From a virus (Duplodnaviria; Heunggongvirae; Uroviricota; Caudoviricetes): DNA of 17,813 bases. Position 1 is the stretch's first letter. Each line of letters opens with the position of its first letter. Under the pieces are notes generated by a model that saw nothing but the letters and a program-made list of their open reading frames with translations, was not told the origin of the DNA and did no database searches. The stretch lies in the IMG/VR virus record IMGVR_UViG_2531839664_000031; one strand, given 5' to 3'. The position numbers and the translations under genes are program-made. Of this stretch, positions 1 to 16,364 are shown one piece after another.

Positions 1-981
1 AGGCTTCCGCTTATTTGCGAAGGCGGAGTTCGACCGCCTCTGGAAAAAATGATGCCACTGCTGGATAAGCTGCGTGAGCAGTACGGGGTCGGACCGGTAT
101 GCAGCGAACTGCATATTGCCCCGTCAACGTATTACCATTGTCAGCAACAGCGACATCATCCGGATAAACGCAGTGCCCGTGCGCAGCACGATGACTGGCT
201 GAAGAGAGAGATACAGCGCGTATACGATGAAAATCACCAGGTATACGGTGTGCGTAAAGTCTGGCGTCAGTTGTTACGGGAAGGTATCAGAGTGGCCAGA
301 TGCACTGTGGCACGTCTCATGGCAGTTATGGGACTTACCGGTGTTCTCCGGGGTAAAAAGGTCCGCACTACCGTCAGCCGGAGAGCCGTTGCCGCAGGCG
401 ACCGCGTAAACCGTCAGTTCGTGGCAGAACGTCCAGACCAGTTGTGGGTGGCTGATTTTACCTGGGTAAGCACATGGCAGGGCTTCGTTTATGTGGCGTT
501 CATCATTGATGTGTTCGCCGGATACATCGTGGGATGGCGGGTCTCATCATCCATGGAAACGGCATTCGTGCTGGATGCACTGGAGCAGGCGTTGTGGGCC
601 CGTCGGCCGTCCGGCACAATCCACCACAGTGATAAAGGTTCTCAGTATGTATCGCTGGCCTACACGCAGCGGCTTAAGGAAGCCGGCTTACTGGCATCAA
701 CAGGGAGTACTGGTGACTCGTATGACAACGCGATGGCGGAGAGCATCAATGGCCTTTACAAAGCGGAGGTAATACACCGTAAGCGCTGGAAAAACCGTGC
801 AGAAGTGGAACTGGCCACACTAACGTGGGTGGACTGGTATAACAATCGACGATTGCTGGGAAGGCTGGGCCATACTCCTCCGGCAGAAGCAGAAAAAGCT
901 TATTATGCTTCCATCGGAAACAATGATCTGGCAGCCTGAGTTCACAGATAAAACACTCTCCAGGAAACCCGGGGCGGTTCA
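1..981 (+). mobile_element. Partial IS3-family insertion sequence (IS629/IS1203/IS3411-like), 3' portion; the window starts inside the element
   Basis: orfA tail in frame 2 (..FAKAEFDRLWKK, stop 50-52) overlaps the orfB start in the -1 frame at an A6 run (44-49), the usual IS3-family frameshift layout. 296-aa orfB follows. Right terminus ..CCGGGGCGGTTCA ends at 981 (TG..CA-type end). Specific IS name is from memory of the OrfB sequence. Confidence 0.6.
49..939 (+). CDS. IS3-family transposase OrfB (DDE/rve integrase-like catalytic subunit), IS629/IS1203-like
   Basis: 296-aa ORF with typical IS3-family OrfB features: ..QLWVADFTW.., ..HHSDKGSQY.., ..YDNAMAES.. and a C-terminal ..LGHTPPAEAE.. 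tail. Starts in the -1 frame overlapping the orfA stop. Confidence 0.85.
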   Translation: MMPLLDKLREQYGVGPVCSELHIAPSTYYHCQQQRHHPDKRSARAQHDDWLKREIQRVYDENHQVYGVRKVWRQLLREGIRVARCTVARLMAVMGLTGVLRGKKVRTTVSRRAVAAGDRVNRQFVAERPDQLWVADFTWVSTWQGFVYVAFIIDVFAGYIVGWRVSSSMETAFVLDALEQALWARRPSGTIHHSDKGSQYVSLAYTQRLKEAGLLASTGSTGDSYDNAMAESINGLYKAEVIHRKRWKNRAEVELATLTWVDWYNNRRLLGRLGHTPPAEAEKAYYASIGNNDLAA

Positions 982-1143
982 GTGGGTTACGTAAGCTTCA
1001 GCGAGGCAGCTCACGCCATAACGGACTATATCGTTGGATATTACAGCGCACTAAGACCGCACGAATATAACGGTGGGTTACCCCCAAACGAATCGGAAAA
1101 TCGATACTGGAAAAACTCTAACTCGGTGGCCAGTTTTTGTTGA
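982..1143 (+). pseudogene. Orphan C-terminal tail of a DDE (rve-type) transposase, or alternatively 5' leader of the adjacent IS66-like element
   Basis: One frame reads ..SEAAHAITDYIVGYYSALRPHEYNGGLPPNESENRYWKNSNSVASFC*, matching the conserved C-terminal pattern of IS3/IS481-type transposases (YYN..RPH...L.P.E.E). No catalytic core or start codon is present; it begins directly after the IS629-like terminus. Confidence 0.3.
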
Positions 1144-2635
1144 CCACTTCAGAAAGCCAGTTCCGTCAGAAAGACCAGCAACTAAGTCTGGTTGAAGAGA
1201 CGGAGGCCTTCCTGTGCTCTGCACTGGCACGTGCCGAAGAAAAGATCGAAGAAGATGAACGGGAAATAGAACATCTGCAGACTCAGATAGAAAAACTGCG
1301 CCGGATGCTGTTCGGTACCCGTTCTGAAAAACTGCGTCGTGAAGTTGAACAGGCTGAGGCCCTGCTGAAACAACGCGAACAGGACAGCGATCGTTACAGT
1401 GGGCGGGAAGACGCTCCACAGGTTCCCCGCCAGTTGAGACAGCCGCGCCATCGTCGTCCGTTACCGGCACACCTTCCCCATGCAATACACCGTCTGGAGT
1501 CTGAAGAAAGCTGTTGCCCGGAGTGTGGCGGTGAGCTGGATTATCTGGAGGAAGTCAGTGCAGAACAACTGGAACTGGTGAGCAGCGCCCTGAAAGTGAT
1601 CCGCACTGTTCGGGTAAAAAAGCCTGTACAAAATGTGACTGCATCGTTGAAGCACCGGCGCCGTCCCGCCCGATAGAGCGTGGTATCGCGGGCCCCGGAT
1701 TACTTGCCCGCGTGTTAACGGGAAAATACTGCGAACAGCTGCCACTGTATCGTCAGAGTGAAATCTTTGCCCGACAGGGTGTCGAACTGAGCCGTGCATT
1801 ACTCTCCAACTGGGTTGACGCGTGCTGCCAGTTAATGACTCCGCTGAATGATGCCCTGTACCGTTATGTGATGAATACCCGCAAGCTTCACACTGACGAC
1901 ACACCGGTAAAGGTACTGGCACTGGGCCTGAAAAGACGAAAACAGGGCGCATCTGGACGTATGTCCGGAATGATCGCAATGCGGGTTCGTCATCTCCTCC
2001 GGCGGTCTGGTTCGCGTACTCACCGAACCGGCAGGGGAAACACCCGGAGCAACACCTCCGCCCCCTGCAGGCGGATGCGTTCAACGGTTACGATCGGCTG
2101 TTCAGTGCAGAACGTGAAGATGGTGCGCTGACAGAAGTTGCGTGCTGAGCCCATGTCCGGAGAAAAATCCACGATGTATACATCAGCAGCAAAAGTGCGA
2201 CGGCAGAAGAAGCCCTGAAGCGCATCAGTGAACTGTACGCCATCGAGGATGAAATACGGGGATTACCAGAGTCAGAGCGTCTTGAAGTCAGGCAGCAGCG
2301 AAGCAAAGCGTTACTGACGTCGCTGCATGAATGGATGGTGGAGAAGAATGGCACGCTGTCGAAAAAATCCAGACCAGGCGAAGCGTTCAGCTATGTACTG
2401 AATCAGTGGGACGCCCTCTGTTATTACAGTGATGACGGTCTGGCGGAGGCGGACAATAACACAGCGGAAAGAGCGCTTCGTGCCGTCTGTCTCGGGAAAA
2501 AGAATTACATGTTCTTCGGTAGCGATCACGGCGGCGAGCGTGGAGCACTGCTGTACGGGCTGATCGGCACCTGCCGTCTGAACGGTATCGATCCGGAAGC
2601 GTATCTGCGCCATATTCTGAGCGTACTACCGGAAT
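1137..2635 (+). pseudogene. IS66-family transposase (TnpC-like), inactivated by frameshifts and a nonsense codon and truncated at its 3' end by IS3
   Basis: Three consecutive ORFs in frames 0, 2 and 1 (1137-1676, 1712-2131, 2335-2673) together read as one IS66-type transposase: coiled-coil N-terminus with LFGTRSEKL, zinc-finger CPECGG..KACTKCDC, IERGIAGPGLLA, DDTPVKVLA, then ..GKKNYMFFGSD... Frame change at the A6 run 1616-1621, a second near 1925-1945, in-frame TGA at 2146-2148 where Trp is expected (ACWAHVRR context), and the reading frame runs into the IS3 left end at 2636. No ATG start and no tnpA/tnpB upstream. Confidence 0.75.
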
Positions 2636-2700
2636 TGATCTTACCCAGCAATAGTGGACACGCGGCTAAGTGAGTAAACTCTCAGTCAGAGGTGACTCAC

Positions 2701-3000
2701 ATGACAAAAACAGTATCAACCAGTAAAAAACCCCGTAAACAGCATTCGCCTGAATTTCGCAGTGAAGCCCTGAAGCTTGCTGAACGCATCGGTGTTACTG
2801 CCGCAGCCCGTGAACTCAGCCTGTATGAATCACAGCTCTACAACTGGCGCAGTAAACAGCAAAATCAGCAGACGTCTTCTGAACGTGAACTGGAGATGTC
2901 TACCGAGATTGCACGTCTCAAACGCCAGCTGGCAGAACGGGATGAAGAGCTGACCATCCTCCAAAAGGCCGCGACATACTTCGCGAAGCGCCTGAAATGA
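2701..3000 (+). CDS. insE: IS3 transposase OrfA (InsE), HTH DNA-binding subunit
   Basis: 99-aa product [29 protein letters not shown].. with a C-terminal leucine-zipper-like segment. ATG at 2701 (the ORF track starts 3 codons earlier at a GTG). Confidence 0.85.
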
Positions 3001-3862
3001 AGTATGTCTTTATTGAAAAACATCAGGCTGAGTTCAGCATCAAAGCAATGTGCCGCGTGCTCCGGGTGGCCCGCAGCGGCTGGTATACGTGGTGTCAGCG
3101 GCGGACAAGGATAAGTACATGTCAGCAGTTCCGCCAACACTGCGACAGCGTTGTCCTCGCGGCTTTTACCCGGTCAAAACAGCGTTACGGTGCCCCACGC
3201 CTGACGGATGAACTGCGTGCTCAGGGTTACCCCTTTACGTAAAAACCGTGGCGGCAAGCCTGCGCCGTCAGGGACTGAGGGCAAAGGCCTCCCGGAAGTT
3301 CAGCCCGGTCAGCTACCACGCACACGGCCTGCCTGTGTCAGAAAATCTGTTGGAGCAGGATTTTTACGCCAGTGGCCCGAACCAGAAGTGGGCAGGAGAC
3401 ATCACGTACTTACGTACAGATGAAGGCTGGCTGTATCTGGCAGTGGTCATTGACCTGTGGTCACGTGCCGTTATTGGCTGGTCAATGTCGCCACGCATGA
3501 CGGCGCAACTGGCCTGCGATGCCCTGCAGATGGCGCTGTGGCGGCGTAAGAGGCCCCGGAACGTTATCGTTCACACGGACCGTGGAGGCCAGTACTGTTC
3601 AGCAGATTATCAGGCGCAACTGAAGCGGCATAATCTGCGTGGAAGTATGAGCGCAAAAGGTTGCTGCTACGATAATGCCTGCGTGGAAAGCTTCTTTCAT
3701 TCGCTGAAAGTGGAATGTATCCATGGAGAACACTTTATCAGCCGGGAAATAATGCGGGCAACGGTGTTTAATTATATCGAATGTGATTACAATCGGTGGC
3801 GGCGGCACAGTTGGTGTGGCGGCCTCAGTCCGGAACAATTTGAAAACCAGAACCTCGCTTAG
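2997..3862 (+). pseudogene. insF: IS3 transposase OrfB (InsF), frameshifted
   Basis: Two ORFs (2997-3242 and 3248-3862) together read as Ins[23 protein letters not shown].. then ..[27 protein letters not shown]... The first ends ..GYPFT* and the second picks up ..[11 protein letters not shown].. in another frame, consistent with loss of one A near 3237-3240 (TTTACGTAAAAACC, where NVKTVAAS is expected). Confidence 0.8.
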
Positions 3863-4415
3863 GCCTGTGTCCATATTACGTGGGTAGGATCAGCTAACCT
3901 ACATGTGCAAAGCATGAAATTGGCCTCAGATTAATGTTAAGCGTCTTGCCGGACGCGTAATGTTAACTGGGGCTTTTCTCTATCTGCCTTTTGGTGTTCA
4001 TGCCTGAGGCAGATAGCCTCAAGCACCCGCAGCAATTCTAACTATCCAATAGATCAATGCCAACTTCTTTTCCTGCAACATCTCTCATCATAAGTGACCC
4101 AAATTCATCCAATCAGCACAAAAGAAACATTTAAAGCGTGAATGCTACCGAACGTTCATTTCAATTACATCGTTTTGATTTTTAACAGTTTTCACCTCAA
4201 CAAATCAAATGGCATTAGCATTCATCATGGAAGAAAGACTGATAAAAATGATCATTTTCAATGACTTATGATCACACCGGGTATTGCCAAGTCATTCCTT
4301 TTACGCCAGGATACCCACAAGTGAGTAGTCGAGGAGAGTTTGCCAATTTTTGCGATATAAATTTCAATGTCCGAAGAACCATTAATTGTTAATTGATTCT
4401 GTATAAGGTATTAAC

Positions 4416-5513
4416 ATGACAATTTCATATATTCCTATTCTGAAAGCGAAACGTTCTGAGTTATCAGCTTTATCGCAGCTATCCATTGAAAAGAAATCAA
4501 AAATTTTGCCATTACTCGAAATTGAACCAGTGCCAATTGACCCTGATTCAGGTATTGCCTTAAAGAGTTATAACGAGACTCTTATAGAGTTCGGAAAGAA
4601 AGTCTCAAAATCTTGCTCAGATATGCAAGGTGTTTATATTGATGGATTATTAATTGAAGAGCATTTTATTTCTCCTGAAGATCATTACCCTATAATAAAT
4701 GCGGTTAATCAAGTTAGAGATATGGGGATAAGAGTTATTCCTGTCAGTTCACCAACTCGCCCATCTAACTATAAAAGAGCGATTGATGAATTAATGCAGA
4801 ATGAAATATGCTTGAGATTAACCACGTTAGATCTGGTTAACCCACAATTAATAACGCATTACATTAATCATCTGGGAATTCCTTTATCAAATATTGATAT
4901 AATTATTGACTTAAGAGATGAGTTAACCGAGGATAAAATTAATTCCGGCGAACTATATACTTTGGCAATGGGATTGATAAACAATCTGGCGCACCTCAAT
5001 GAATACAGAAAAGTGATTCTTTCTGGGGGTTCATTTCCTACAGATCTCAGTGATATTTCTGTTGGTCTATATTCTCAACCTCGAATCGAGTGGATTTTAT
5101 GGCAGAGTTTAATGAATAGAAAAGAACTTGCCAGAAATGTGATTTATAGTGATTATGGAGTACAGCACCCCGACTTTAATAGGCTTTCGACGCGATTCCC
5201 TAGCGTATCTGCCAGCGTCAGATACTCTGGAGATAATGACTTTTGGGTATTTCGAGGAAGAGTAGCTAATCGCTTTGGTTATGAACAATATGGTAAACAT
5301 AGTGAGGATATTCTTGCTCATCGAGAATATTCAGGGCCTACATTCTGTGCGGGAGATAGAGACATAGAATATTATGCAAACGAGTATCAAGCCTACAAAG
5401 CCAATCCCTCTGGTAACTATAAATTTGGTAGCCCAGAGGTATGGCGTAGGATTGGGCAAAACCATCACATAACTAAGGTTGTTGAGCAACTCGCCACTCT
5501 TTACGGGCTTTAA
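4416..5513 (+). CDS. Uncharacterised 365-aa protein; resembles, from memory, proteins annotated as 'beta family protein' (the sce7725-type partner of sce7726-family proteins)
   Basis: 1.1-kb ORF in AT-rich DNA, which is unlikely by chance. ATG at 4416 preceded by AAGGT at 4402-4406. N-terminus MTISYIPILKAKRSELSAL. Alternating hydrophobic strand-like segments (YIPIL, VYIDGLL, IRVIPV, ICLRL, IDIIIDL, KVILSGG, VIYSDYG) suggest an alpha/beta fold. No recognisable catalytic motif. Family recollection is unverified. Confidence 0.7.
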   Translation: MTISYIPILKAKRSELSALSQLSIEKKSKILPLLEIEPVPIDPDSGIALKSYNETLIEFGKKVSKSCSDMQGVYIDGLLIEEHFISPEDHYPIINAVNQVRDMGIRVIPVSSPTRPSNYKRAIDELMQNEICLRLTTLDLVNPQLITHYINHLGIPLSNIDIIIDLRDELTEDKINSGELYTLAMGLINNLAHLNEYRKVILSGGSFPTDLSDISVGLYSQPRIEWILWQSLMNRKELARNVIYSDYGVQHPDFNRLSTRFPSVSASVRYSGDNDFWVFRGRVANRFGYEQYGKHSEDILAHREYSGPTFCAGDRDIEYYANEYQAYKANPSGNYKFGSPEVWRRIGQNHHITKVVEQLATLYGL

Positions 5514-6051
5514 GTTTAACTCGAACAGCTTCACGAAGCTCGCCAACATCCATACTATTGGCGAGTTTTGACCATAAGACGCGTTTAGGTTTATTTTTCA
5601 AATTCTGTAGCTCCCCTACATCACTTAATAGGGAAAGCAATTCATCTTTCCAAAGAAGCATTGTTAAGGAAAGTTTGTCCACTTGTGGATTCAACTTGCT
5701 AGTTCGAATTGTTTTTAAATGGATACCTTGCCGTGCACCTTGCGTAACTTGCTTTATCCCCCACCATGATGGAACTATGCTTAAAGCATCATAAAGATGG
5801 CAATCAGAGACAACCAAAGTTACTTTATCCATCACTGATGAGTAATGTTGCACCTGCGCTGGTAATCTGAGCAAGTTATCACTCTTGCTCTTCAACTCAT
5901 AACCATGTATAAGCCCATTGATCACTGCTATATCAGCTCTGCTAGCCCCTAGATTCATCGTAAACTCATCAATGATTAGGGTGTCAGGATCTTTATGATG
6001 ATCTCTCAGAATCTTGGCATGCACAGCCTTTCTTACATCAATGTCTCTCAT
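5473..6051 (-). CDS. Uncharacterised 192-aa protein with a PD-(D/E)xK-like nuclease motif; resembles, from memory, 'sce7726 family' proteins
   Basis: Convergent with the 365-aa gene and overlapping its 3' end by 41 nt. Motif ..IIDEF..-..RADIAVINGLIHGYELKSKSD.. fits the D-x11-E-x-K signature of restriction-endonuclease-fold nucleases. Basic C-terminal tail. No clear Shine-Dalgarno before ATG 6051, so the start is uncertain. Confidence 0.6.
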   Translation of the reverse strand: MRDIDVRKAVHAKILRDHHKDPDTLIIDEFTMNLGASRADIAVINGLIHGYELKSKSDNLLRLPAQVQHYSSVMDKVTLVVSDCHLYDALSIVPSWWGIKQVTQGARQGIHLKTIRTSKLNPQVDKLSLTMLLWKDELLSLLSDVGELQNLKNKPKRVLWSKLANSMDVGELREAVRVKLKARKEWRVAQQP

Positions 6052-6373
6052 ACCATAGTTGCGCTTTCATCGACTCTCTCAAGCCATGATTCTATATCAT
6101 GGTTCGCATGAATGCCATTTGATATGACCAGTGGTTAAACATTGCACAGAAAAGTGGATGTGTATTTTAACAAAAGCAATGACGGCTAACCATGTTGGTA
6201 TGTCGATAAAATGTTTCAACGTAAGCATTATCTGTTCCGCCCTTTCGGGCGGCCTCCTGATGTTCTGAGGGTGCAGAAATCCCTCCGGTTAAGGATTAAA
6301 TTTTATTTACAGAACTGAATTTAATTATTCAGATATACGTATCTGTAACCTTACTAACCTACTCACTGGATGC

Positions 6374-6847
6374 CTATTTCATAAAAATAATCCAGTGGGT
6401 TTTATCGTTTTTTCCTGTTCGTTGACCGATAACAGGTTTTCTGTCGGTCAGTGCCAATATCTGGCGAACAGGTATTTGCGTTTCATTCCATTTAAAAATC
6501 AGAACGCCGTATGGACGCAACACACGAAAGGCTTCTTTAAATCCCTGCCGCAAATCATCACGCCAGGTATCTTTATTCAGCCGTCCATATTTCTTTCCCA
6601 TCCTGGCGTTATCACCAACACGCTCAAGATGCGGAGGATCGAATATAACCATCGAAAAAGATGCGTCTGCAAATGGTAGTGCACGAAAATCAGCTATCAG
6701 ATCAGGACTGATAATCAGGCGTCGTCCATCACACAATGTGTGCTCTTCCTTTCTGATATCGCTAAATATCGCCCGGTCGTCATTCTTATCGAACCAGAAC
6801 ATGCGACTGCCACAGCACATATCAAGAATGGTTGCCGGTGCACTCAC
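6374..6847 (-). CDS. Small SAM-dependent methyltransferase-like protein (putative phage DNA methyltransferase)
   Basis: 157 aa. Motif I-like LDMCCGS near the N-terminus and motif IV-like FDPPH (DPPY/H type) about 60 residues later. GTG start with AGGAGG 6-8 nt upstream, overlapping the stop of the upstream gene by 4 nt. Confidence 0.6.
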   Translation of the reverse strand: MSAPATILDMCCGSRMFWFDKNDDRAIFSDIRKEEHTLCDGRRLIISPDLIADFRALPFADASFSMVIFDPPHLERVGDNARMGKKYGRLNKDTWRDDLRQGFKEAFRVLRPYGVLIFKWNETQIPVRQILALTDRKPVIGQRTGKNDKTHWIIFMK

Positions 6848-7260
6848 TGCGCTACCTCCTGAAAATTACCCTGATAGAAAGCCAGTACACGCTGCATAGC
6901 TTCGCTCTTCCGGCACTCGCGACAGATTATATTCAGGCGCCTGTCGTAGCGGCGTATTTCTCCGTCTGGTAATGAATAAACCAGGTCCGGGTCGCTCTTT
7001 TTTTTCACTGCTGCTTTCGACATCTTTTTGCGGGCCTTTATCCAGTCCTTACGTGCCTGTTCAGACGGAAATAACCCGTAGCCGGAGTTGTATAAATCGC
7101 CACTGGCAACCAGCTCTCTGGCAAGAACACTCATCAGATATCTTGTCGCACCTGTCTTGGCTTCCAGTTGCCGTAACGTCTCGCGACCGCTCAGACGTAC
7201 AAGTTCAACAACCTGCCCTTTAATTTTTTCCCGCTCTTCTGATGTAAATACTTTTGCCAT
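6844..7260 (-). CDS. Hypothetical prophage protein (138 aa from ATG 7260)
   Basis: Translationally coupled within the minus-strand operon. GGAGG 5 nt upstream of ATG 7260 (the track ORF starts 5 codons earlier at TTG). Basic, lysine-rich central segment; no motif recognised. Confidence 0.55.
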   Translation of the reverse strand: MAKVFTSEEREKIKGQVVELVRLSGRETLRQLEAKTGATRYLMSVLARELVASGDLYNSGYGLFPSEQARKDWIKARKKMSKAAVKKKSDPDLVYSLPDGEIRRYDRRLNIICRECRKSEAMQRVLAFYQGNFQEVAQ

Positions 7261-7275
7261 AGGTGCCTCCGGCAA

Positions 7276-8037
7276 TCACTTTTCCGACACAATACGGCTG
7301 GAGGAATCGAAAATCTGTCGAACAATATCCCGGTGCTTGTTCAGCTCCCGCAGCGCGGCGCAGACTCGCTCCCACTTCTGGACATGATTTTTCGCCCGAC
7401 GCAGTTCGCGGTTTGCCATATGCAGCGATGGTAAAACCAGGTCATCCGCTCGCGTTTCAGTAAACGATGGCAGCGACTGCACAATGTCCGCCACCGTTTC
7501 TGTTTTAATATCTTCCTGTGTTGCAGCCTCCTGTACTGGTAACGCAACACCTGTGGGCTGAGGAAAGGCCTTACCATCAGTTTCCGCTACCGATGCTGCT
7601 TTCGGCTCTGCTGGTAAATTATCGCCCGGTATGCAGTAACGAAATTTACCGTTCTGGTTTACGCGAATCAGGCGTCCTTTGCTGATAGCCATTGCCAGCG
7701 TTGAAGCTACTTTGCGTGATGTGGTACCGAACAATGTAGCCAACTCATCCGCCGTTTGTGGTCCACGTTGTTCAATCGCCGCAGTTAAATCGCACTCCGA
7801 AATTTTCGCGACTGTTGCCGTGGTGGTTTCTTCCGGCAGTTCTGCCTGCTCTGGCTGTTCCTGCTGAACGTTGTTATCAGCCACACGCCAGGTGTATACG
7901 CTTTTATCAACGAAACCAGCCTTTTTCAGTTCCCACAGCTCGTTCAGTACCTCTTCACGACTGATATCAAGTCGCGCAGCCAGTTCTACCGACGTGGCTT
8001 TTCCCATTGCTTTCAGTGCGTCAAATACAGTTTCCAT
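7276..8037 (-). CDS. Prophage protein with two winged-helix/HTH-like segments (ydaW-like position downstream of ydaV)
   Basis: ATG 8037 with GGAGG about 9 nt upstream (the track ORF starts at TTG 8055). Segments ..[29 protein letters not shown].. and ..[32 protein letters not shown].. look like HTH/wHTH units separated by an acidic, low-complexity linker. Confidence 0.55.
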
Positions 8038-8058
8038 TAAAACGTCCTCCAACAAAAA

Positions 8059-8805
8059 TTACTCCGCAATTCCTGGCTGACCAACATTCGGACGCCAGCT
8101 CTCCCAGTTAAAATTCACCCATCGCCCGCCGTTCATGGTCATGCGATCCATAATCCGCTCACCGAGCAATGTTTTCATGGCCTCATAGTTCAGGTTTGTC
8201 AGCATCCCCACGCTGCGCATCGACGCTGTCCGGCGATCAACAATCTGATGCAGCACCACCTGCTCGTTTTTCGTCTCGCGCTGAATGCCAATTTCATCAA
8301 GAACCAGCAGATCCACTTCGCACAGCTCCCGCAAAAATTTTTCGCCTGACTGCCCGTCGTCATAGCTGGCGTGCAGGGCGCTCATAACATCAGCCACGGT
8401 AACCACAATCACTGTCTGACCGTCTTTCAGCAGGCGATTCCCGATAGCTGCCGCTAAGTGATTCTTCCCGGTACCAGGTTTTCCGCTGAACGAAAAATTT
8501 GTACACCCGGTCATCAGTTCATCGGCGATGGATTTCGCCTGGCTTAACGCGTATCGCTGGCCGTCGTTCTGCACCTGGTAATTCGCAAACGAGCATTTAC
8601 GGTGCAACGGCTGGATGCCAGAGCGATTCAGAATTTTTTCCACCCGCAACTGACGATTCAGGCGGTTGATCTCCTCGCAACGTTTCTGTCCTTCAGCAAG
8701 TTGCCACTCACGCCACTCCGCAACCGTTCTGAATGGGGCGGTTACATGTGGTGGGGTCAGTCTGCGGATACGCTCCAGAACGCCGCCTGTCGCAATATTT
8801 TTCAT
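8059..8805 (-). CDS. ydaV: DnaC-like replication protein / helicase loader (AAA+ ATPase)
   Basis: 248 aa. Walker A GKPGTGKNHLAAAIG and Walker B LLVLDEIG. Sits directly after ydaU as in lambdoid O/P-type replication modules. Confidence 0.85.
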   Translation of the reverse strand: MKNIATGGVLERIRRLTPPHVTAPFRTVAEWREWQLAEGQKRCEEINRLNRQLRVEKILNRSGIQPLHRKCSFANYQVQNDGQRYALSQAKSIADELMTGCTNFSFSGKPGTGKNHLAAAIGNRLLKDGQTVIVVTVADVMSALHASYDDGQSGEKFLRELCEVDLLVLDEIGIQRETKNEQVVLHQIVDRRTASMRSVGMLTNLNYEAMKTLLGERIMDRMTMNGGRWVNFNWESWRPNVGQPGIAE

Positions 8806-8811
8806 GGTCTG

Positions 8812-9669
8812 TTACCCCCTGAAGCCTGGCGGGATCGCACTATCCGGTAGCGAAACGGTGTTAACCTGTCGGAGTAACGTCTCAGGTCGAACACCTTTCG
8901 GCGCGAACAAGCCCTGGTATTCATTGGCGATGCTGTGTCGAATCACCTGCTCAGGTGAAAAACCCTGCTGGCGGAATTTTTCCAGCTCCCGTATCGCCCC
9001 GTTAGCGCCCTGCTCCGTTCGAATCGGTTTACGCAATGCCTGGCGAAATTCAACCCACTCACGCCAAAGCGAGACAGAAATCCAGTTCGGCAAAGCAATA
9101 TCCAGAGGGTCAAACTTTTTGACACCTCGATTCCCCCGGGGGGGATTTAGGGGGGGATCTGTTTTTAGATCTTTATCTGTATCTTTATTAGTTGCCTTTG
9201 TGTTGACATCATGTTCAAACACCACTTCAACATCTGTTTGAACACCTGTTAAATTTCTCTCTTGTTTTTTTTGAACATCTGCTTCCTTTCTGCTTCTTCT
9301 GGCCTGAACAGATGCTTTTCCTGCGGCTGATTTTTTGGTTAATTTTTCCCTGACTGATGCCAGATCTTCCTCAATCCGAAGATGCACCCATTCCTCGCCG
9401 TTATCGCAAAAAAACTCCTGCAAGGATGGTTCAACATCAGCCCATCGCTCGTTAGTCAGACGGGCAATTTTTGCCAGTCTGTTTTTAGGTATTGGCTTTC
9501 CTGTTTGCCAGTAATTGAACATCAGCAACAAATACGCACCATGCTCCTCTGCTGACAAATGCATGGTGTCAGCCAAGTAATCAGCTATGTACAGTTGCAT
9601 GTATGGTAATGCGGCCATAATTGCCCCGTATGATGCTGCCCGGTGGCTTAGAATAAGCACAAACAGCAT
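8812..9669 (-). CDS. ydaU: Putative prophage replication initiation protein (DUF1376-like N-terminus)
   Basis: 285-aa ORF from the first ATG. The conserved N-terminal pattern (MQLYIADYLADTMHLSAEEHGAYLLLM) begins at internal Met codons (9600 or 9618), so the true start may be internal. Contains homopolymer tracts at 9133-9156. Confidence 0.8.
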   Translation of the reverse strand: MLFVLILSHRAASYGAIMAALPYMQLYIADYLADTMHLSAEEHGAYLLLMFNYWQTGKPIPKNRLAKIARLTNERWADVEPSLQEFFCDNGEEWVHLRIEEDLASVREKLTKKSAAGKASVQARRSRKEADVQKKQERNLTGVQTDVEVVFEHDVNTKATNKDTDKDLKTDPPLNPPRGNRGVKKFDPLDIALPNWISVSLWREWVEFRQALRKPIRTEQGANGAIRELEKFRQQGFSPEQVIRHSIANEYQGLFAPKGVRPETLLRQVNTVSLPDSAIPPGFRG

Positions 9670-9681
9670 GGAAACTTTTGC

Positions 9682-10104
9682 TTAATGAACAATGACAGAA
9701 TCTTCGGAAGACCCGCCGCCGCTGAAATGCGCTTTCCGGTAAACGGCCTGGACTGCATCATCATGCGCATCAATTGCCGTACTCAACGCTTCCTGCGCCG
9801 CCAGTAATGCACGGCGTTCCAGGGTATCGAAGATGCAGAGTCGGTGACGCAGCTCGCGCGGAATAATTGCCAGAACCGCAGGGATCAGTTTCTGAATTTT
9901 TTCCCTTTGCGCTTTCGTTTCACCTTTCAACCAACGGTGATAGATATTCTGCTGATTGTTCCAGTCCTTGCCTGGTACCAGGGGCAATTCGCCGCCCCCC
10001 TGGCGCAGATATTCTTCAGTAATTGCGTTAGCGACCCACGCCTGCCCTTTTTCGGCTGCCAGGGCTAACAACACTGATTCGATGTGCTCATGCCTGATTT
10101 TCAT
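9682..10104 (-). CDS. ydaT: Rac prophage protein YdaT (reported toxic when derepressed)
   Basis: 140 aa. AGGAG 7 nt upstream of ATG 10104. Overlaps the ydaS 3' end by 17 nt. Confidence 0.8.
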   Translation of the reverse strand: MKIRHEHIESVLLALAAEKGQAWVANAITEEYLRQGGGELPLVPGKDWNNQQNIYHRWLKGETKAQREKIQKLIPAVLAIIPRELRHRLCIFDTLERRALLAAQEALSTAIDAHDDAVQAVYRKAHFSGGGSSEDSVIVH

Positions 10105-10363
10105 GAATCAACTCCTGTGCATTTTGCGTGTTAGCCTTACATCCAACAGGTAAACCATCGGTCGGATTAGGGTAGATATCAGGCCGGAGTTCATGAGGTG
10201 TAACCTCGAAATTCGTAGCCTCTGCGATACGCAATACCTTTTCAGGGCTTAACTGACTACGTCCAGTAGCAACGAGGCTAATCATTGATTGCGAACAACC
10301 AGCCAGCGCGGCCAAACAAGACTGTCGTACACGATTTTTTTTCAAATATTCATCTAATGTCAT
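10088..10363 (-). CDS. ydaS: Cro-like HTH regulator YdaS
   Basis: HTH segment ..SCLAALAGCSQSMISLVATGR... ATG 10363 (MTLDEYL..) has AAGGTGA upstream. The track ORF extends to 10402 without a ribosome-binding site, so the start is uncertain. Confidence 0.7.
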   Translation of the reverse strand: MTLDEYLKKNRVRQSCLAALAGCSQSMISLVATGRSQLSPEKVLRIAEATNFEVTPHELRPDIYPNPTDGLPVGCKANTQNAQELIHENQA

Positions 10364-10467
10364 AATGGTCACCTTAGTAATGCTCACAAAAATATTAACC
10401 ATACTAATTTAAATGATCAATACCTATATCAGTTTGAGATTATGAACTGTATTCATAAGATGGTGGT
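10364..10467. promoter_or_regulatory. Divergent ydaS / racR control region with candidate operators
   Basis: AT-rich 104-bp spacer between divergent genes. Inverted repeats TTAGTA(10374-10379)/TACTAA(10402-10407) and TATGAA(10441-10446)/TTCATA(10452-10457), the latter 11 nt upstream of the racR ATG. Confidence 0.5.
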
Positions 10468-10932
10468 ATGAGAAGAAAACGCGAAGAAATCGCATCGCCG
10501 GAAGCTACGCAACGTCTGCGCGCAATCTGGGATGCAAAAAAAAGAGAGCTCAAACTGACTCAGGAGCTTGCTGCCGAGCTAATGGGTTTTGAGGCGCAAT
10601 CTGCGGTTAGCCATTATCTCAACGGAAAGGCTCCACTTAATACTGATGCGGCATTAAAATTCGCTGTATTACTAAGAGTTAAGCCTGAAGAGTTGAGGCC
10701 TGATTTAGCTGATCTGATGAATTACGTCCGTTCCTCAGGAACTTATGACGAAAGTTTCGAAGGCGAAGGTTGGCGGATGGTTAACAAGCAACAAGCTGAT
10801 TTACTAGATCTTTTTGATATCCTTCCCGAATCAGAAAAAGCAAAACTAATCGAAAGACTTAAAGGTCAGAATGAACTCTACAAAGAAGCATTTGAAAATA
10901 TGCTGGCAGCTCAAAAACGCATGAAGAAATAG
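10468..10932 (+). CDS. racR: Rac prophage repressor RacR
   Basis: 154 aa. HTH-like segment ..LKLTQELAAELMGFEAQSAVSHYLNGK.. (lambda cI/XRE-like). Divergent from ydaS-ydaT. Confidence 0.85.
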   Translation: MRRKREEIASPEATQRLRAIWDAKKRELKLTQELAAELMGFEAQSAVSHYLNGKAPLNTDAALKFAVLLRVKPEELRPDLADLMNYVRSSGTYDESFEGEGWRMVNKQQADLLDLFDILPESEKAKLIERLKGQNELYKEAFENMLAAQKRMKK

Positions 10933-10953
10933 CTCCCACCATCTCGTAACTAA

Positions 10954-10978
10954 ACCGCCATTTTTGGCGGTTTTTTTG
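10954..10978 (+). terminator. Intrinsic (Rho-independent) terminator downstream of racR
   Basis: Stem ACCGCCA (10954-10960), loop TTTT, stem TGGCGGT (10965-10971), followed by T6 (10972-10977). Confidence 0.7.
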
Positions 10979-11167
10979 TCCCCTCCGCCCGCCCCCGCCT
11001 TACTTTTTATCAAAAAAACACTAAAAATTTCATTAGGATAGTACATTTTTATCAACGAAATGCATATTTGTGTTGATCATTAATATGAACATAACTAATA
11101 TTATTGCAGAAGCAGCACGGCGCTGTAGGTTTTAGTTCCGCCACCCGGCGTTAAAGGGAGAGATAAA

Positions 11168-11302
11168 ATGGTGCATTACGAAGTAGTTCAGTATTTGATG
11201 GATTGTTGCGGTATCACTTACAGCCAAGCTGTACAGGCTCTACGCAGCAACGACTGGGATCTCTGGCAGGCAGAAGCCGCTATATGCAGCAACAAGATGT
11301 GA
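11168..11302 (+). CDS. ydaG: Small Rac prophage protein YdaG (44 aa)
   Basis: MVHYEVVQYLMDCCGITYSQAVQALRSNDWDLWQAEAAICSNKM. GGGAGAG upstream of the ATG. Below the size cut-off of the ORF track. Confidence 0.65.
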   Translation: MVHYEVVQYLMDCCGITYSQAVQALRSNDWDLWQAEAAICSNKM

Positions 11303-11312
11303 GATTCGCAAA

Positions 11313-11465
11313 ATGCAAAAAATCGACCTCGGCAACAACGAATCCCTAGTGTGTGGCGTGTTCCCCAACCAGGATGGAACGTTCACCGCCATGACGTATA
11401 CCAAAAGCAAAACATTTAAAACTGAAACAGGCGCACGTCGCTGGCTTGCCAAAAATACCAGCTAA
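11313..11465 (+). CDS. ydaF: Small Rac prophage protein YdaF (50 aa)
   Basis: MQKIDLGNNESLVCGVFPNQDGTFTAMTYTKSKTFKTETGARRWLAKNTS, read directly from the sequence. Follows ydaG after 10 nt. Confidence 0.65.
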   Translation: MQKIDLGNNESLVCGVFPNQDGTFTAMTYTKSKTFKTETGARRWLAKNTS

Positions 11466-11889
11466 ACCATTTATTGGATTAATTCAATATTCTTGCTGTA
11501 GGGGTATAGCCGAGGCCACCAAAGCCCGGAGGTGGTGAAATAAAACCGGGCACAACACGAAGGCGCATTTCCGGTATCCATAAAGAGTCGGTCTTGTCTG
11601 TCAAATTTAAATGGTGGGAGTGCGCCTCCGGTTGTGAATAACAACACTGCTGTGTGTAGTCTTGGCGGCATCAGTTTTTTCTTGAAGTTCGACTGATGTC
11701 CGCCCTTTTTAAAGTGAATTTTGTGATGCGGTGAATGCGGCTAAGCGCACGCGGAACAGTTAAAAAGCTATTGTCCTTCGTAGCAGAGTTATGGGTGAAA
11801 TATCCGGCGTTAATTGTTAACTGGTTAACGTCACCTGGAGGCACCAGGCACCGCATCGACAAAATTCATTTGTAAAAATGGAGATAATT

Positions 11890-12111
11890 ATGATTGCTCA
11901 TCACTTCGGAACTGATGAAATACCACGTCAGTGTGTGACCCCTGGCGATTATGTTCTTCATGAAGGCCGGACATATATTGCCTCGGCAAACAATATTAAA
12001 AAGCGAAAACTTTATATTCGTAACCTGACCACAAAAACATGCATTACTGACCGCATGATTAAAGTCTTCCTCGGTCGTGATGGTTTACCTGTAAAGGCGG
12101 AGTCATGGTGA
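11890..12111 (+). CDS. kilR: KilR, FtsZ-targeting cell-division inhibitor of Rac
   Basis: 73 aa from ATG 11890 ([29 protein letters not shown]..), with GGAG 5 nt upstream. The track ORF starts 4 codons earlier. Confidence 0.85.
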
Positions 12112-12281
12112 TGACTAAGAAAATAAAATGTGCTTATCACCTTTGCAATAAAGGAATTGAAGAAAGCAAAAGTATTAAAAGACCACTTCATTTCATGCGT
12201 GGAGTTATCCCAACGACGGAAATGAAAAAATATTGTAGTGAAAATTGTGCCGAAAAAGACCAGATGGCACACGAACTTTAA
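12111..12281 (+). CDS. ydaE: YdaE, small Cys-rich (zinc-binding type) Rac protein, 56 aa
   Basis: [59 protein letters not shown] overlaps the kilR stop (TGATG). C-x4-H-x2-C ... C-x3-C arrangement. Confidence 0.75.
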   Translation: MTKKIKCAYHLCNKGIEESKSIKRPLHFMRGVIPTTEMKKYCSENCAEKDQMAHEL

Positions 12282-12361
12282 CTAACTGACTATTCGAAAC
12301 TGAATTTATGCCAGCAATGGCAGGTGGTCGCTCAACCTTAAAATAGTTATGAGGTTTATCA

Positions 12362-15031
12362 ATGAGTACTGATAAAGAAAATTACGCTCTGTATTGCGAC
12401 GCGAAAAATGATAAAACCAGAAAACGCCTCGGCATCAAAGGCGGCTTTTTCTGGACAGAGGCAAAAAAACTTTCTGTTGCGGTTTCACGCTGCATTGCTG
12501 CAATGGACGATGCCGGATTTGACGAAGAGGATTTTAAAAAACCCATCCGCGTCCATTTACCCGTTGTGAATGACCTTCCACCGGAAGGTGTGTTTGATAC
12601 TGAATTCTGCAACCGATACGAAAAAGGCGGAGAAGATGGTATCACAATGATACTTATCGCGCCCTCTGTTCCGGACAAACCAGCCAGTACTGACAATACC
12701 AACGTCAACGGCGAAGACATGGCTAAGATTGAGGAGAATATGCTTCTTCCGGTTTCAGGTCAGATTCTGCCTGTTCGCTGGCTGGCGCAACACAACAGCG
12801 AAAAACCGCTCACGCACGTTTCACTGGACAAACTGCGCGCATTACATAACGCACAGGATGAAAAACTTCCCGCCGTTACCGCGCTGGCCATCTCAAATAA
12901 AGCAGTGCAACTCGAACCGCTGGAGATTCGGGATTTGTACAAACTGGTGCGAGACACTGACAAAGTTTTCCCCGCCCCCGTAAATTCGGACCTGGGACTG
13001 ATGACCTCTTTTATCGAAGCATACCTGGGCGCTGACTACACCGATCGCGGTCTGCTTACAAAAGAGTGGATGAAAGGAAATCGTGTTTCACGCATCAGCC
13101 GCACGCCATCCGGCGCTAACGCTGGCGGCGGCATTCTTACCGATCGCGGCGAAGGTTTTGTCCACGATGATGCGTCAGTGGCGCGTGACGTAGCCACTGG
13201 CGTACTGGCCCGTTCAATGGACGTGGATATTTATAACCTTCATCCCGCGCACGCTAAACGCATTGAGGAAATTATCGCTGAAAATAAACCGCCATTTTCT
13301 GTGTTTTTCAGCAAATTCATCACCATGCCGGGCCACAAGGATTACTCCCGCGCCATCGTGGTTGCGTCCGTGAAAGAAGCACCAATTGGTATAGAGGCTA
13401 CTCCCCACCGTGTCACCGAATACCTGAATAAGGTGCTGACTGAAACCGATCATGCCACCCCTGATCCGGAAATCGTGGATATTGCCTGTGGTCGCTCCTC
13501 TGCCCCGATGCCGCAGCGTGTAACAAAAGAAGGAAAACAGGATGATGAAGAAAAACTGCAACCATCTTGCGCAATGGCAGATGAACAGGCAACGGCTGAA
13601 ACAGTGGAACCGGATGCAACTGAACATCATCAGGACACGCAGCCGCTGGATGCTCAGTCACAGGTAAATTCTGTTGATGCGAAATATCAGAAACTGCGGG
13701 CAGAACTCCATGAAGCCCGGAAAAACATTCCGCCCCAAAATCCTGTCGATGCAGATAAATTACTGGCTGCCTCTCGCGGAGAATTTGTTGAAGGGATTAG
13801 CGACCCGAATGATCCGAAATGGGTTAAGGGAATTGAAACCCGAGATTCTGTGAACCAGAACCAGCCCGAATCGGAACAAAACAACCAGAAAGCGGAACAA
13901 AACAGCCCAAATGCACAGAAAAACGAGCCAGAAACGAAACAATCTGAACCAGTAGCGCAACAGGAACCGGAAAAAGTCTGTGCCGCCTGCGGTCAGAGCG
14001 GTGGCGGCAACTGCCCTGATTGTGGCGCGGTGATGGGCGACACCACGTATCAGGAAACCTTTAATGAAGAAAATCTGGATGAATCTCAGGAAAAAGATCC
14101 GGAGGAAATGGAAGGCCCTGAACATCCGCACAATGAGAATGCTGGCAGCGATCCGCATCGCGATTGCAGTGACGAAACTGGCGAAGTCGCAGATCCCGTA
14201 ATCGCAGGAGACATAGAGCCTGGTATTTATTACGGAATTTCGAATGAGAATTACCACGCTGGTCCCGGTGTCAGTAAGTCTCAGCTCGACGACATTGCTG
14301 ATACTCCGGCTCTGTATTTGTGGCGTAAAAATGCCCCAGTGGACACCACAAAGACAAAAACGCTCGATTTAGGAGCCGCTTTCCACTGCCGTGTACTTGA
14401 ACCGGAAGAATTCAGTAACCGCTTTATCATAGCACCTGAATTTAATCGCCGTACAAACGCCGGAAAAGAAGAAGAGAAAGCGTTTCTGATGGAATGCGCA
14501 AGCACAGGAAAAACGGTTATCACTGCGGAAGAAGGCCGGAAAATTGAACTCATGTATCAAAGCGTTATGGCTTTGCCGCTGGGGCAATGGCTTGTTGAAA
14601 GCGCCGGACACGCTGAATCATCAATTTACTGGGAAGATCCTGAAACAGGAATTTTGTGTCGGTGCCGTCCGGACAAAATTATCCCTGAATTTCACTGGAT
14701 CATGGACGTGAAAACTACGGCGGATATTCAACGATTCAAAACCGCTTATTACGACTACCGCTATCACGTTCAGGATGCATTCTACAGTGACGGTTATGAA
14801 GCACAGTTTGGAGTGCAGCCAACTTTCGTTTTTCTGGTTGCCAGCACAACTATTGAATGCGGACGTTATCCGGTTGAGATTTTCATGATGGGCGAAGAAG
14901 CAAAACTGGCAGGCCAGCAGGAATATCACCGCAATCTGCGGACCCTGGCTGACTGCCTAAATACCGATGAATGGCCAGCTATTAAGACGTTATCACTGCC
15001 CCGCTGGGCTAAGGAGTATGCAAATGATTAA
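12362..15031 (+). CDS. recE: RecE, exodeoxyribonuclease VIII (5'-3' dsDNA exonuclease of the RecET system)
   Basis: 889 aa. C-terminal third (..[47 protein letters not shown]..) is the RecE PD-(D/E)xK exonuclease domain. Acidic, low-complexity linker contains a C-x2-C-x7-C-x2-C motif (13979-14023). GAGG 8 nt upstream of the ATG. 3' end overlaps recT. Confidence 0.9.
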
Positions 15032-15833
15032 GCAACCACCTATCGCAAAAGCCGATCTGCAAAAAACTCAGGGAAACCGTGCACCAGCAGCAGTTAACGA
15101 TAAGGATGTGCTGTGCGTGATTAACAGCCCGGCAATGAAAGCGCAACTGGCAGCAGCTCTGCCACGTCACATGACAGCGGAACGCATGATCCGCATTGCT
15201 ACAACAGAAATCCGTAAAGTACCGGAACTAAGAAACTGTGACTCGACGAGTTTTATCGGTGCCATCGTACAGTGTTCACAGCTCGGACTTGAGCCAGGTA
15301 GCGCCCTCGGTCATGCATATTTACTGCCTTTTGGTAATAAAAACGAAAAGAGCGGTAAAAAGAACGTTCAGCTAATCATTGGCTATCGCGGCATGATTGA
15401 TCTGGCTCGCCGTTCTGGTCAAATCGCCAGCCTGTCAGCCCGTGTTGTCCGTGAAGGTGACGAGTTTAGCTTCGAATTTGGCCTTGATGAAAAGTTAATA
15501 CACCACCCGGGAGAAAACGAAGATGCCCCGGTTACCCACGTCTATGCTGTCGCAAGACTGAAAGACGGAGGTACTCAGTTTGAAGTTATGACGCGCAAAC
15601 AGATTGAGCTGGTGCGCAGCCTGAGTAAAGCTGGTAATAACGGGCCGTGGGTAACTCACTGGGAAGAAATGGCAAAGAAAACGGCTATTCGTCGCCTGTT
15701 CAAATATCTGCCCGTATCAATTGAGATCCAGCGTGCAGTATCAATGGATGAAAAGGAACCACTGACAATCGATCCTGCAGATTCCTCTGTATTAACCGGG
15801 GAATACAGTGTAATCGATAATTCAGAGGAATAA
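15024..15833 (+). CDS. recT: RecT, single-strand annealing recombinase
   Basis: 269 aa from ATG 15024 ([23 protein letters not shown]..), with AAGGAG at 15011-15016. Overlaps the recE stop by 8 nt. The track ORF begins further upstream inside recE. Confidence 0.9.
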
Positions 15834-15889
15834 TTCAGCCTGGCGGTGTAATGCACCGCCAACTTGAAATATTTTTTATGAGAAAAATT

Positions 15890-16084
15890 ATGAGATATGA
15901 CAATGTTAAACCATGTCCATTTTGTGGTTGTCCATCAGTAACGGTGAAAGCCATTTCAGGATATTACCGAGCGAAGTGTAACGGATGCGAATCCCGAACC
16001 GGTTATGGTGGAAGTGAAAAAGAAGCACTCGAAAGATGGAATAAACGAACCACTGGAAATAATAATGGAGGTGTTCATGTATAA
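15890..16084 (+). CDS. ralR: RalR (Lar), restriction-alleviation protein, reported as the toxin of a type I toxin-antitoxin pair
   Basis: 64 aa from ATG 15890 (MRYDNVKPCPFCGCPSVTVKAISGYYRAKCNGCESRTGYGG..), with a C-x2-C ... C-x2-C zinc-ribbon pattern. A partner antisense sRNA (RalA) is expected nearby, but I could not place it from sequence. Confidence 0.85.
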   Translation: MRYDNVKPCPFCGCPSVTVKAISGYYRAKCNGCESRTGYGGSEKEALERWNKRTTGNNNGGVHV

Positions 16085-16286
16085 AATTACCGCCACTATT
16101 GAAAAGGAAGGTGGCACTCCTACTAACTGGACAAGATATTCAAAATCTAAACTAACGAAATCAGAATGCGAAAAAATGCTCTCAGGTAAAAAAGAAGCAG
16201 GCGTTTCCAGAGAGCAGAAAGTAAAACTGATAAATTTTAATTGCGAGAAACTTCAGTCCTCGAGAATTGCATTGTATTCAAATTAA
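16077..16286 (+). CDS. ydaC: YdaC, small Rac prophage protein (69 aa)
   Basis: ATG 16077 with GGAGG 6 nt upstream, overlapping the ralR stop. MYKITATIEKEGGTPTNWTRYSKSKLTKSECEKML.. Confidence 0.8.
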   Translation: MYKITATIEKEGGTPTNWTRYSKSKLTKSECEKMLSGKKEAGVSREQKVKLINFNCEKLQSSRIALYSN

Positions 16287-16364
16287 AACTTCATAGCTGA
16301 TTATTAATAATCAACATCGGGCGTCAATTTCAGTCTAACATTGGCGCCTGCCAGAGGTGATGCG

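Follow-up and report, generated by a model that had tools for sequence, protein, structure and literature searches.

Accessory genes behind ydaV in a Rac-family prophage of Escherichia coli O121:H19 and the apparent end of the prophage at an IS3 element

A Rac-family early operon and its described relatives

The gene arrangement reported here has a near-identical counterpart that is already deposited and annotated, the Rac-family Escherichia phage Rac-SA53 (KU052037.1, a complete 52-kb genome), and everything found in it belongs to known kinds. The DNA analysed, hereafter the window, is a stretch of 17,813 nt from a virus (IMG/VR record IMGVR_UViG_2531839664_000031), and the segment of interest, 6374-8055, holds three accessory genes that follow the replication genes ydaU and ydaV of a prophage. 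Rac-SA53 has the same early order, intR-xis-ralR-recT-recE-kilR ... ydaT-ydaU-ydaV-ydaW(DUF1627)-lygF(DUF977), and the same order onward, from the cII-like and beta genes to hok/mok, rem, irsA, ybcO, Q, lysis, terminase and structural genes. Its DNA is 96.4% identical over 74% of window 3893-8805, its LygF is 86% identical to the DUF977 protein of the window, and the genes of the AT-rich island behind the accessory genes are already annotated there as 'beta' and 'CII phage-like protein'. It differs in carrying rac19, ead, rac21, rac22 and an IS1 where the window has a gene for a methyltransferase of 157 amino acids (aa), in a hok leader without the insertion sequence (IS) IS3, and in its morons, which are LT-IIa and a pertussis-like toxin as against nleC in the O121 prophage.

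In phage lambda, ren follows P. The accessory segment resembles the lambda ren/nin region in its slot in the early-right operon directly behind O/P-type replication genes, in the Ren-like PHROG match of its DUF977 protein, and in its mosaic, dispensable content, which varies among prophages. The DUF1627, methyltransferase, beta/cII, hok/sok and doc genes are, by contrast, not lambda genes, and Ren-type exclusion is putative here. Two described defence systems resemble the island. The gop-beta-cII genes of P4 provide protection against lambda and P1 (Rousset et al. 2022, PMC9122126), and PD-lambda-2 is composed of a HigB-like protein (A), an Xre-peptidase (B) and a Beta-like C component (PMC9519451), the last of which is required for defence (Vassallo et al. 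2022, PMC9519451).

The whole window was compared by megablast with 5,426 complete E. coli genomes. Positions 2635-17813 are collinear with nine complete chromosomes at 99.8-99.9% identity (O121 and unlabelled CDC strains), and strain RM8352 is 100% identical across 3893-16613. From ttcA, RM8352 is annotated in the order intR, xisR, rcbA, ralR, recT, recE, ydaE, kilR and ydaF, then a pair of helix-turn-helix repressors, ydaT, ydaU, ydaV, DUF1627, DUF977 and a class I S-adenosylmethionine (SAM) methyltransferase, and finally genes for proteins labelled 'sce7726 family' and 'beta family', and IS3. This order, from intR beside ttcA to beta, identifies the window as part of a lambdoid prophage of the Rac family in E. 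coli O121:H19, which occupies the Rac integration site next to ttcA. Indeed, an IntR-type integrase beside ttcA is accompanied by the early-left genes xisR-ralR-recT-recE-kilR, and Pfam matches together with K-12 identity reveal the racR/ydaS-ydaT-ydaU-ydaV immunity and replication block; identity to the Rac prophage of K-12 is 93.6% over 12694-17813 and 95.8% over 7588-10110. The source record, AEZX02000021.1 (assembly GCA_000194395.2), is 100% identical to window 1-13242, and its base 1 is base 1 of the window. AEZX is tabulated as the JCVI draft of E. coli O121:H19 strain 5.0959 (PMC3359367).

We propose that 6374-8055 is an accessory segment, on the 'ren/nin side', of the early operon that runs rightward in a full-length Rac-family prophage. 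Behind the methyltransferase gene stand an AT-rich beta/cII-like cassette and then a hok/sok locus, into whose leader IS3 has inserted in the O121 lineage, duplicating GCT and deleting nothing. Past IS3 the prophage of finished genomes goes on with hokD and doc, then nin-type genes, a gene resembling Q, a tRNA gene, lysis, terminase, head and tail genes, lom, a tail fibre gene and nleC. The truncated look of the arm has two causes: the window begins at base 1 of a draft contig, and inside the 1.26-kb IS3 the chromosomal context switches to the IS nest of a pO121 plasmid. The features concerned, in the direction of the operon, are the following.

8812-9669, minus strand: ydaU, a replication gene with DUF1376 (Pfam), annotated ydaU in RM8352, 95.8% identical to K-12 Rac
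8059-8805, minus strand: ydaV, a replication gene for an IstB/DnaC-like ATPase (Pfam), annotated ydaV in RM8352, 95.8% identical to K-12 Rac
7276-8037, minus strand: DUF1627 protein, 253-259 aa (annotated start 8037; the longest frame starts at a TTG at 8055); Pfam DUF1627 7.1e-101, PHROG 630
6844-7260, minus strand: DUF977 / Ren-like protein, 138-143 aa (annotated start 7260, longest 7275); Pfam DUF977 9.3e-30
6374-6847, minus strand: methyltransferase, 157 aa; PADLOC MTase_II 1.5e-71 and oMTase 2.2e-49, PHROG 954 'DNA methyltransferase' 3.8e-85
5473-6051, minus strand: P4 cII-like / sce7726-family protein; NCBIfam sce7726_fam 1.7e-56, PADLOC 'cll' 2.4e-28
4416-5513, plus strand: Beta-protein family gene; Pfam Beta_protein 3.8e-52, PADLOC PD-Lambda-2_C 1.8e-41
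3893-4063, minus strand: 5' part of the hokD locus (promoter-like site, leader/sok), from Rfam sok RF01794 and alignment with the empty site
2636-3892, plus strand: IS3, a hybrid copy as judged by single-nucleotide polymorphisms (SNPs) and flanks against the two RM8352 copies, one on the plasmid and one on the chromosome

Much of this layout was already correct in an initial annotation of the window, which had listed a ydaW-like gene, a small basic protein and a 157-aa methyltransferase-like gene after ydaU and ydaV (here DUF1627, DUF977 with an isoelectric point of 9.8, and a protein with the motifs LDMCCGS and FDPPH), and had seen the operon run into an AT-rich island and an IS nest (GC content 0.38 in 4041-6301, IS3 at 2636-3892, IS remnants at 1-2634). 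The three accessory genes lie where it had placed them; all are minus-strand genes that follow ydaV in close succession. Its view that the prophage arm ends after the methyltransferase gene did not hold, since late genes follow in the four complete genomes read. These late genes lie just outside the window, in order, in the complete genomes whose left flank was read, which is the finding that the initial annotation had named as a refutation; the source contig itself starts at window base 1.

Late genes beyond IS3 and the hok/sok leader

The left flank past IS3 was read in four genomes of the clone (RM8352, CP022407, CP051631 and AP024478). In RM8352 it continues with hokD, a small gene, a doc/Fic toxin gene, DUF1367, ybcO/DUF1364 and a DUF1133 gene with a faint match to Q antiterminators, followed by tRNA-Met, DUF6645, DUF1378, DUF826, holin, lysozyme, an antirepressor-like gene and Rz. 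Next come the two terminase genes (small and large), portal and a fused protease/capsid gene, and the distal part holds tail genes, tape measure, J, lom, a tail fibre gene and nleC. The entire prophage measures about 49 kb. Among the matches listed, CP022407, CP051631 and AP024478 have the same left flank past IS3 as RM8352. Moreover, NJS001 carries a full-length prophage without the IS, from ttcA to uspF, with the gene order of RM8352. Q, lysis and structural genes are present and ordered after the early-right operon in the clone's genomes read, in NJS001 and in Rac-SA53.

The distal end of the RM8352 prophage (tail fibre, nleC and a DinI-like gene) abuts a truncated ydfJ (record 1699361-1701018). 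Past this truncated gene, ydfI...eamA follow in inverted K-12 order, and uspF is the neighbour in K-12 and in NJS001. The junction suggests that a large inversion took place, with one end in the prophage at the Rac site and the other in a prophage at the ydfJ (Qin) site.

The place where IS3 interrupts the prophage can be reconstructed, as IS-free prophages carry the empty site ...CACGTAAGAGGCT|AACCTACATG... (short form GAGGCT|AACC). At that very site the chromosomal IS3 of RM8352 lies between two copies of GCT, and this duplication at an intact empty site marks it as a simple insertion, without loss of DNA; the same state is found in all nine complete genomes. On an uninterrupted locus the Rfam sok model (RF01794) reaches 119.8 bits; in the window it reaches 80.9 bits, the match breaking off right where IS3 ends, some 35 nt ahead of the hokD AUG. 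The hok/sok leader is thus cut (3893-4028), and the window itself thereby shows that prophage DNA continued past IS3. No hok open reading frame (ORF) contiguous with the sok/leader was found in the window; in the complete genomes hokD lies beyond IS3. A promoter-like site at 4063-4035 scores 10/12 and is a weak hint, the scan of 3880-8200 for promoters and terminators being overall not above shuffled controls (8 against 10.0 promoter-like and 6 against 3.6 terminator-like sites).

Standing between the leader/sok and the hok ORF, IS3 probably silences the hokD toxin. Chromosomal hok/sok loci of K-12 are reportedly inactivated by insertion sequences as well (Pedersen & Gerdes 1999), and the likeness lies in an IS between the hok promoter/leader and the hok ORF. 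The present case differs in that the element is IS3, lies about 35 nt upstream of the hokD AUG and sits in a prophage-borne locus. It is an O121-lineage trait of modest interest.

A plasmid/chromosome switch inside IS3

Left of the prophage DNA the window holds two further features.

1-982, plus strand: 3' part of an IS1203/IS629-like element of the IS3 family; the contig starts inside it, and an ALIL pseudoknot lies at 8-123
983-2634, plus strand: IS3-family fragment and degenerate IS66 tnpC, plasmid-type; the nest is 99.9-100% identical to pO121 and other virulence plasmids of enterohaemorrhagic E. coli (EHEC)

A single stretch of plasmid pRM8352, between espP and toxB, matches window 1-3892 at 99.9% identity, and the window segment likewise matches the pO121 plasmids of the other eight complete genomes. 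Full-length copies of 983-2634 (1,652 bp) at 100% identity occur only on the plasmids of the nine complete genomes, with copies at 99.9% on other EHEC virulence plasmids. The plasmid and chromosome matches of the window overlap exactly in IS3. There, positions 2953, 2955, 3116, 3119, 3120 and 3318 of the window agree with the plasmid copy and position 3766 with the chromosomal one. IS3 is flanked by AAT/AAT in the plasmid and by GCT/GCT in the chromosome; the window combines a left AAT with a right GCT, so that no identical 3-bp target duplication stands on both sides of the window's IS3. Because alleles and flanks switch once, in a 447-bp SNP-free stretch, the window is a hybrid of plasmid and chromosome.

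We infer that this join is artefactual, and give a probability of roughly three in four that the switch is an assembly join through the repeat. The hybrid junction occurs in none of the 5,426 complete E. coli genomes, and the nine with this prophage keep both parental arrangements. The switch falls in the longest SNP-free stretch of IS3. All differences of the window from the references (two homopolymer deletions, T4 to T3 at 13 and A6 to A5 at 3236, and one SNP) lie inside repeats, namely the IS elements, and over 12.7 kb of unique prophage DNA the window does not differ from RM8352 (100% identity). A lower consensus quality in repeats is suggested by this. The 1-bp deletion at 3236 breaks IS3 orfB into ORFs of 81 and 204 aa. 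Where a draft contig breaks off close to an IS, an 'abrupt end' at that IS is uninformative on the real genome.

The same adjacency of IS66 fragment, IS3 and beta was met in three other drafts (BDLD01, BDKD01 and BDKA01) when the plasmid-specific 112-aa IS66 fragment was looked up. Their scaffolds have single-N joins at IS borders and duplicated overlaps of 250-300 bp; in IS3 the plasmid-type part extends to 3713, and the part of chromosome type begins at 3465. One of these scaffolds also joins the plasmid piece, via the other IS, to cas3. All nine complete genomes have this cas3 flank on the chromosome, 1.8 Mb away from the prophage in the case of RM8352, and in a fourth draft (BDJP01) the 1.65-kb plasmid piece is linked to yet another neighbour. 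Because of these N-joins, duplicated overlaps, piece ends and links to cas3 and another locus, the draft scaffolds do not support a real rearrangement. This is how short-read assembly graphs treat a short unique piece that has a repeat on either side. The recurrence of the adjacency was considered as proof of a rearrangement and was rejected on the same N-joins, overlaps and cas3 or other-locus joins. The O121-type draft records BDLD01000048, BDKD01000131, BDKA01000128 and BDJP01000027 are probably recurrent mis-scaffolds in public assemblies.

Several points weigh against our reading. The contig of strain 5.0959 is continuous and without Ns, true homologous recombination of one IS3 copy with another should likewise leave one clean crossover, and the same adjacency stands in several independent drafts. 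The late genes are known from other genomes of the clone and are not seen in strain 5.0959 itself. Besides, the late region of RM8352 may have been exchanged with that of another lambdoid prophage, its far end abutting truncated ydfJ and not uspF.

The continuous contig, the single crossover and the recurrent adjacency would favor a real junction, in which the prophage IS3 recombined in 5.0959 with the IS3 of pO121, by plasmid integration or another IS3-mediated rearrangement. A hybrid IS3 with one crossover between 3318 and 3766 and the unmatched flanks AAT/GCT is indeed a recombination outcome. We nevertheless regard such an event as unlikely, given its absence from the complete genomes, the N-joined and variously linked scaffolds of the other drafts, the position of the switch in the longest SNP-free stretch and the clustering of homopolymer errors in repeats. 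It is equally unlikely that plasmid DNA was left between the early arm of the prophage and its late genes, as a real junction would entail. A true junction would mean a strain-specific integration of the virulence plasmid that splits the prophage and brings espP/toxB-type DNA onto the chromosome.

A loss or replacement of the late half of the prophage through IS3 or the AT-rich island appears highly improbable; the initial annotation had suggested that part of the prophage was replaced or displaced. No late gene follows the island within the window, and IS elements can cause adjacent deletions. However, the DNA left of IS3 is the plasmid IS nest, with an AAT flank and plasmid-type SNPs, and not distal prophage or chromosome; the island occupies the same slot unchanged in intact prophages and in a phage genome; and the chromosomal IS3 is a clean insertion with a perfect 3-bp duplication (GCT) around the intact empty site. 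Least probable of all is a Rac relative that is natively short and defective, lacking lysis and structural genes by the early region as does the remnant in K-12, since genomes 100% identical over 3893-16613 carry a prophage of about 49 kb with a full late region and the cut hok/sok leader at 3893-4028 shows that prophage DNA ran past IS3.

The K-12 Rac prophage shares with the O121 prophage its integration site beside ttcA, an int-to-ydaV early region that is 91-96% identical, and lom with the N-terminal part of stfR (92-97% to the O121 late region). BLASTN found no homology between K-12 Rac and the window left of 7588, inside the DUF1627 gene. The YdaW of K-12 (186 aa) is 95% identical to the DUF1627 protein of the window over its first 151 aa and then diverges; homology resumes in Rz about 13.9 kb beyond, where rzpR/rzoR match the Rz-type lysis gene of the RM8352 prophage, and lomR and the start of stfR match its lom and tail-fibre genes at 92-97%. 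K-12 ydaW is thus a truncated DUF1627 gene fused to rzpR, about 13.9 kb downstream, and the window holds the intact, full-length version. Relative to the O121 prophage, K-12 Rac has an internal deletion from about DUF1627 codon 151 (breakpoint at about window 7588) to inside Rz (rzpR), some 13.9 kb of RM8352-type sequence, in addition to trkG and further head-gene deletions.

The absence of rzpR/rzoR, trkG and tail-fibre genes from the window, stated in the initial annotation, was confirmed by the same comparison, which showed nothing left of 7588. That annotation had also proposed a whole-locus alignment with K-12 Rac. The alignment does stop at 7588; its resumption in Rz reflects a deletion in K-12, because of which rzpR/rzoR and the following genes neighbour ydaW there. 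Likewise, the suggestion of a different module at this position stands insofar as the O121 prophage carries the full ren/nin-type region, and its sense is reversed, K-12 Rac being on this comparison a deleted derivative. With so much of its own sequence deleted, K-12 Rac is a reference from which other strains may differ without having lost anything.

Accessory genes and the beta/cII cassette

Between the replication genes and hok/nin, the Rac-type slot swaps small modules, here an orphan methyltransferase and a gop-less beta/cII pair. The functions proposed for the three accessory genes are read from their sequences and remain predictions. The DUF1627 protein has a winged helix-turn-helix at its N terminus (Pfam). 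The DUF977 protein, named LygF in phage records, has an isoelectric point of 9.78 and matches PHROG 142 'Ren-like exclusion protein' at 2.6e-46. The methyltransferase ORF overlaps the stop of the preceding gene by 4 bp, and its translation contains motif I (LDMCCGS) and motif IV (FDPPH) of amino-methyltransferases. Pfam gave it only weak, generic Methyltransf_11/25 matches, a PDB sequence search gave nothing significant (best E-value 0.27), and no NCBIfam model matched it, the DUF977 protein or the Beta protein. Homologues occur in 254 phage records from many hosts and, among the matches listed, are mostly annotated as DNA or SAM-dependent methyltransferases. The 157-aa protein would be a class I SAM-dependent amino-methyltransferase, an orphan enzyme that may protect phage DNA from restriction. 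Its gene sits in a separate mosaic module (6302-6843), which is replaced elsewhere by other small genes.

The cassette behind it (4041-6301) is a mosaic module common to many intact lambdoid prophages and to phage Rac-SA53. Together with the hok/sok remnant (3893-6301) it is 99.4-99.8% identical in seven other lambdoid prophages, which have different replication and integration modules, and its slot is constant, with DUF977 and one or two small genes on one side and hok on the other. In a contig collection, 2,241 indexed blocks contain the identical Beta protein.

The Beta-family and cII-family genes are convergent, as in P4, the cII-like gene overlapping the 3' end of the Beta gene. Identity to the P4 proteins is only 23% for Beta and 28% for the cII-like protein (E 2e-17), the latter having 192 aa against 264 in P4, and the Beta protein of the window is closest to PD-lambda-2C (1.8e-41). 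No gop gene was found upstream of beta, where 3893-4416 holds only ORFs of at most 43 aa; PADLOC gave no gop match among five proteins (three accessory, two cassette), the small ORFs upstream of beta not being scanned. HigB-like (A) and Xre-peptidase (B) partners were likewise not found in 4041-6301, which has no further sizeable ORFs. Judged on its gene content, the cassette would be a gop-less relative of P4 gop-beta-cII and of PD-lambda-2 and a member of neither, and its defence activity is putative.

In the alignment, the cII-like protein and P4 cII share a RAD...E-x-K pattern reminiscent of PD-(D/E)xK nucleases. A restriction-modification pair formed by this protein and the methyltransferase was considered and ruled out: the two genes belong to separate mosaic modules (boundary 6301/6302), and the beta/cII cassette occurs without this methyltransferase in the seven prophages and in Rac-SA53.

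Elsewhere in the prophage, one more feature was identified.

16083-16261, minus strand: RalA antitoxin small RNA, intact (Rfam, 225 bits), part of the ralR/ralA type I toxin-antitoxin pair

With ralR/ralA, hokD/sok and doc, the prophage of the complete genomes has at least three toxin-antitoxin-type loci. RM8352 alone has an extra IS1203/IS629-like element in the xisR-intR gap, at window 16614-16622, which is missing from the window and from the other eight complete genomes; it is of the same IS type as the element that holds the start of the contig.

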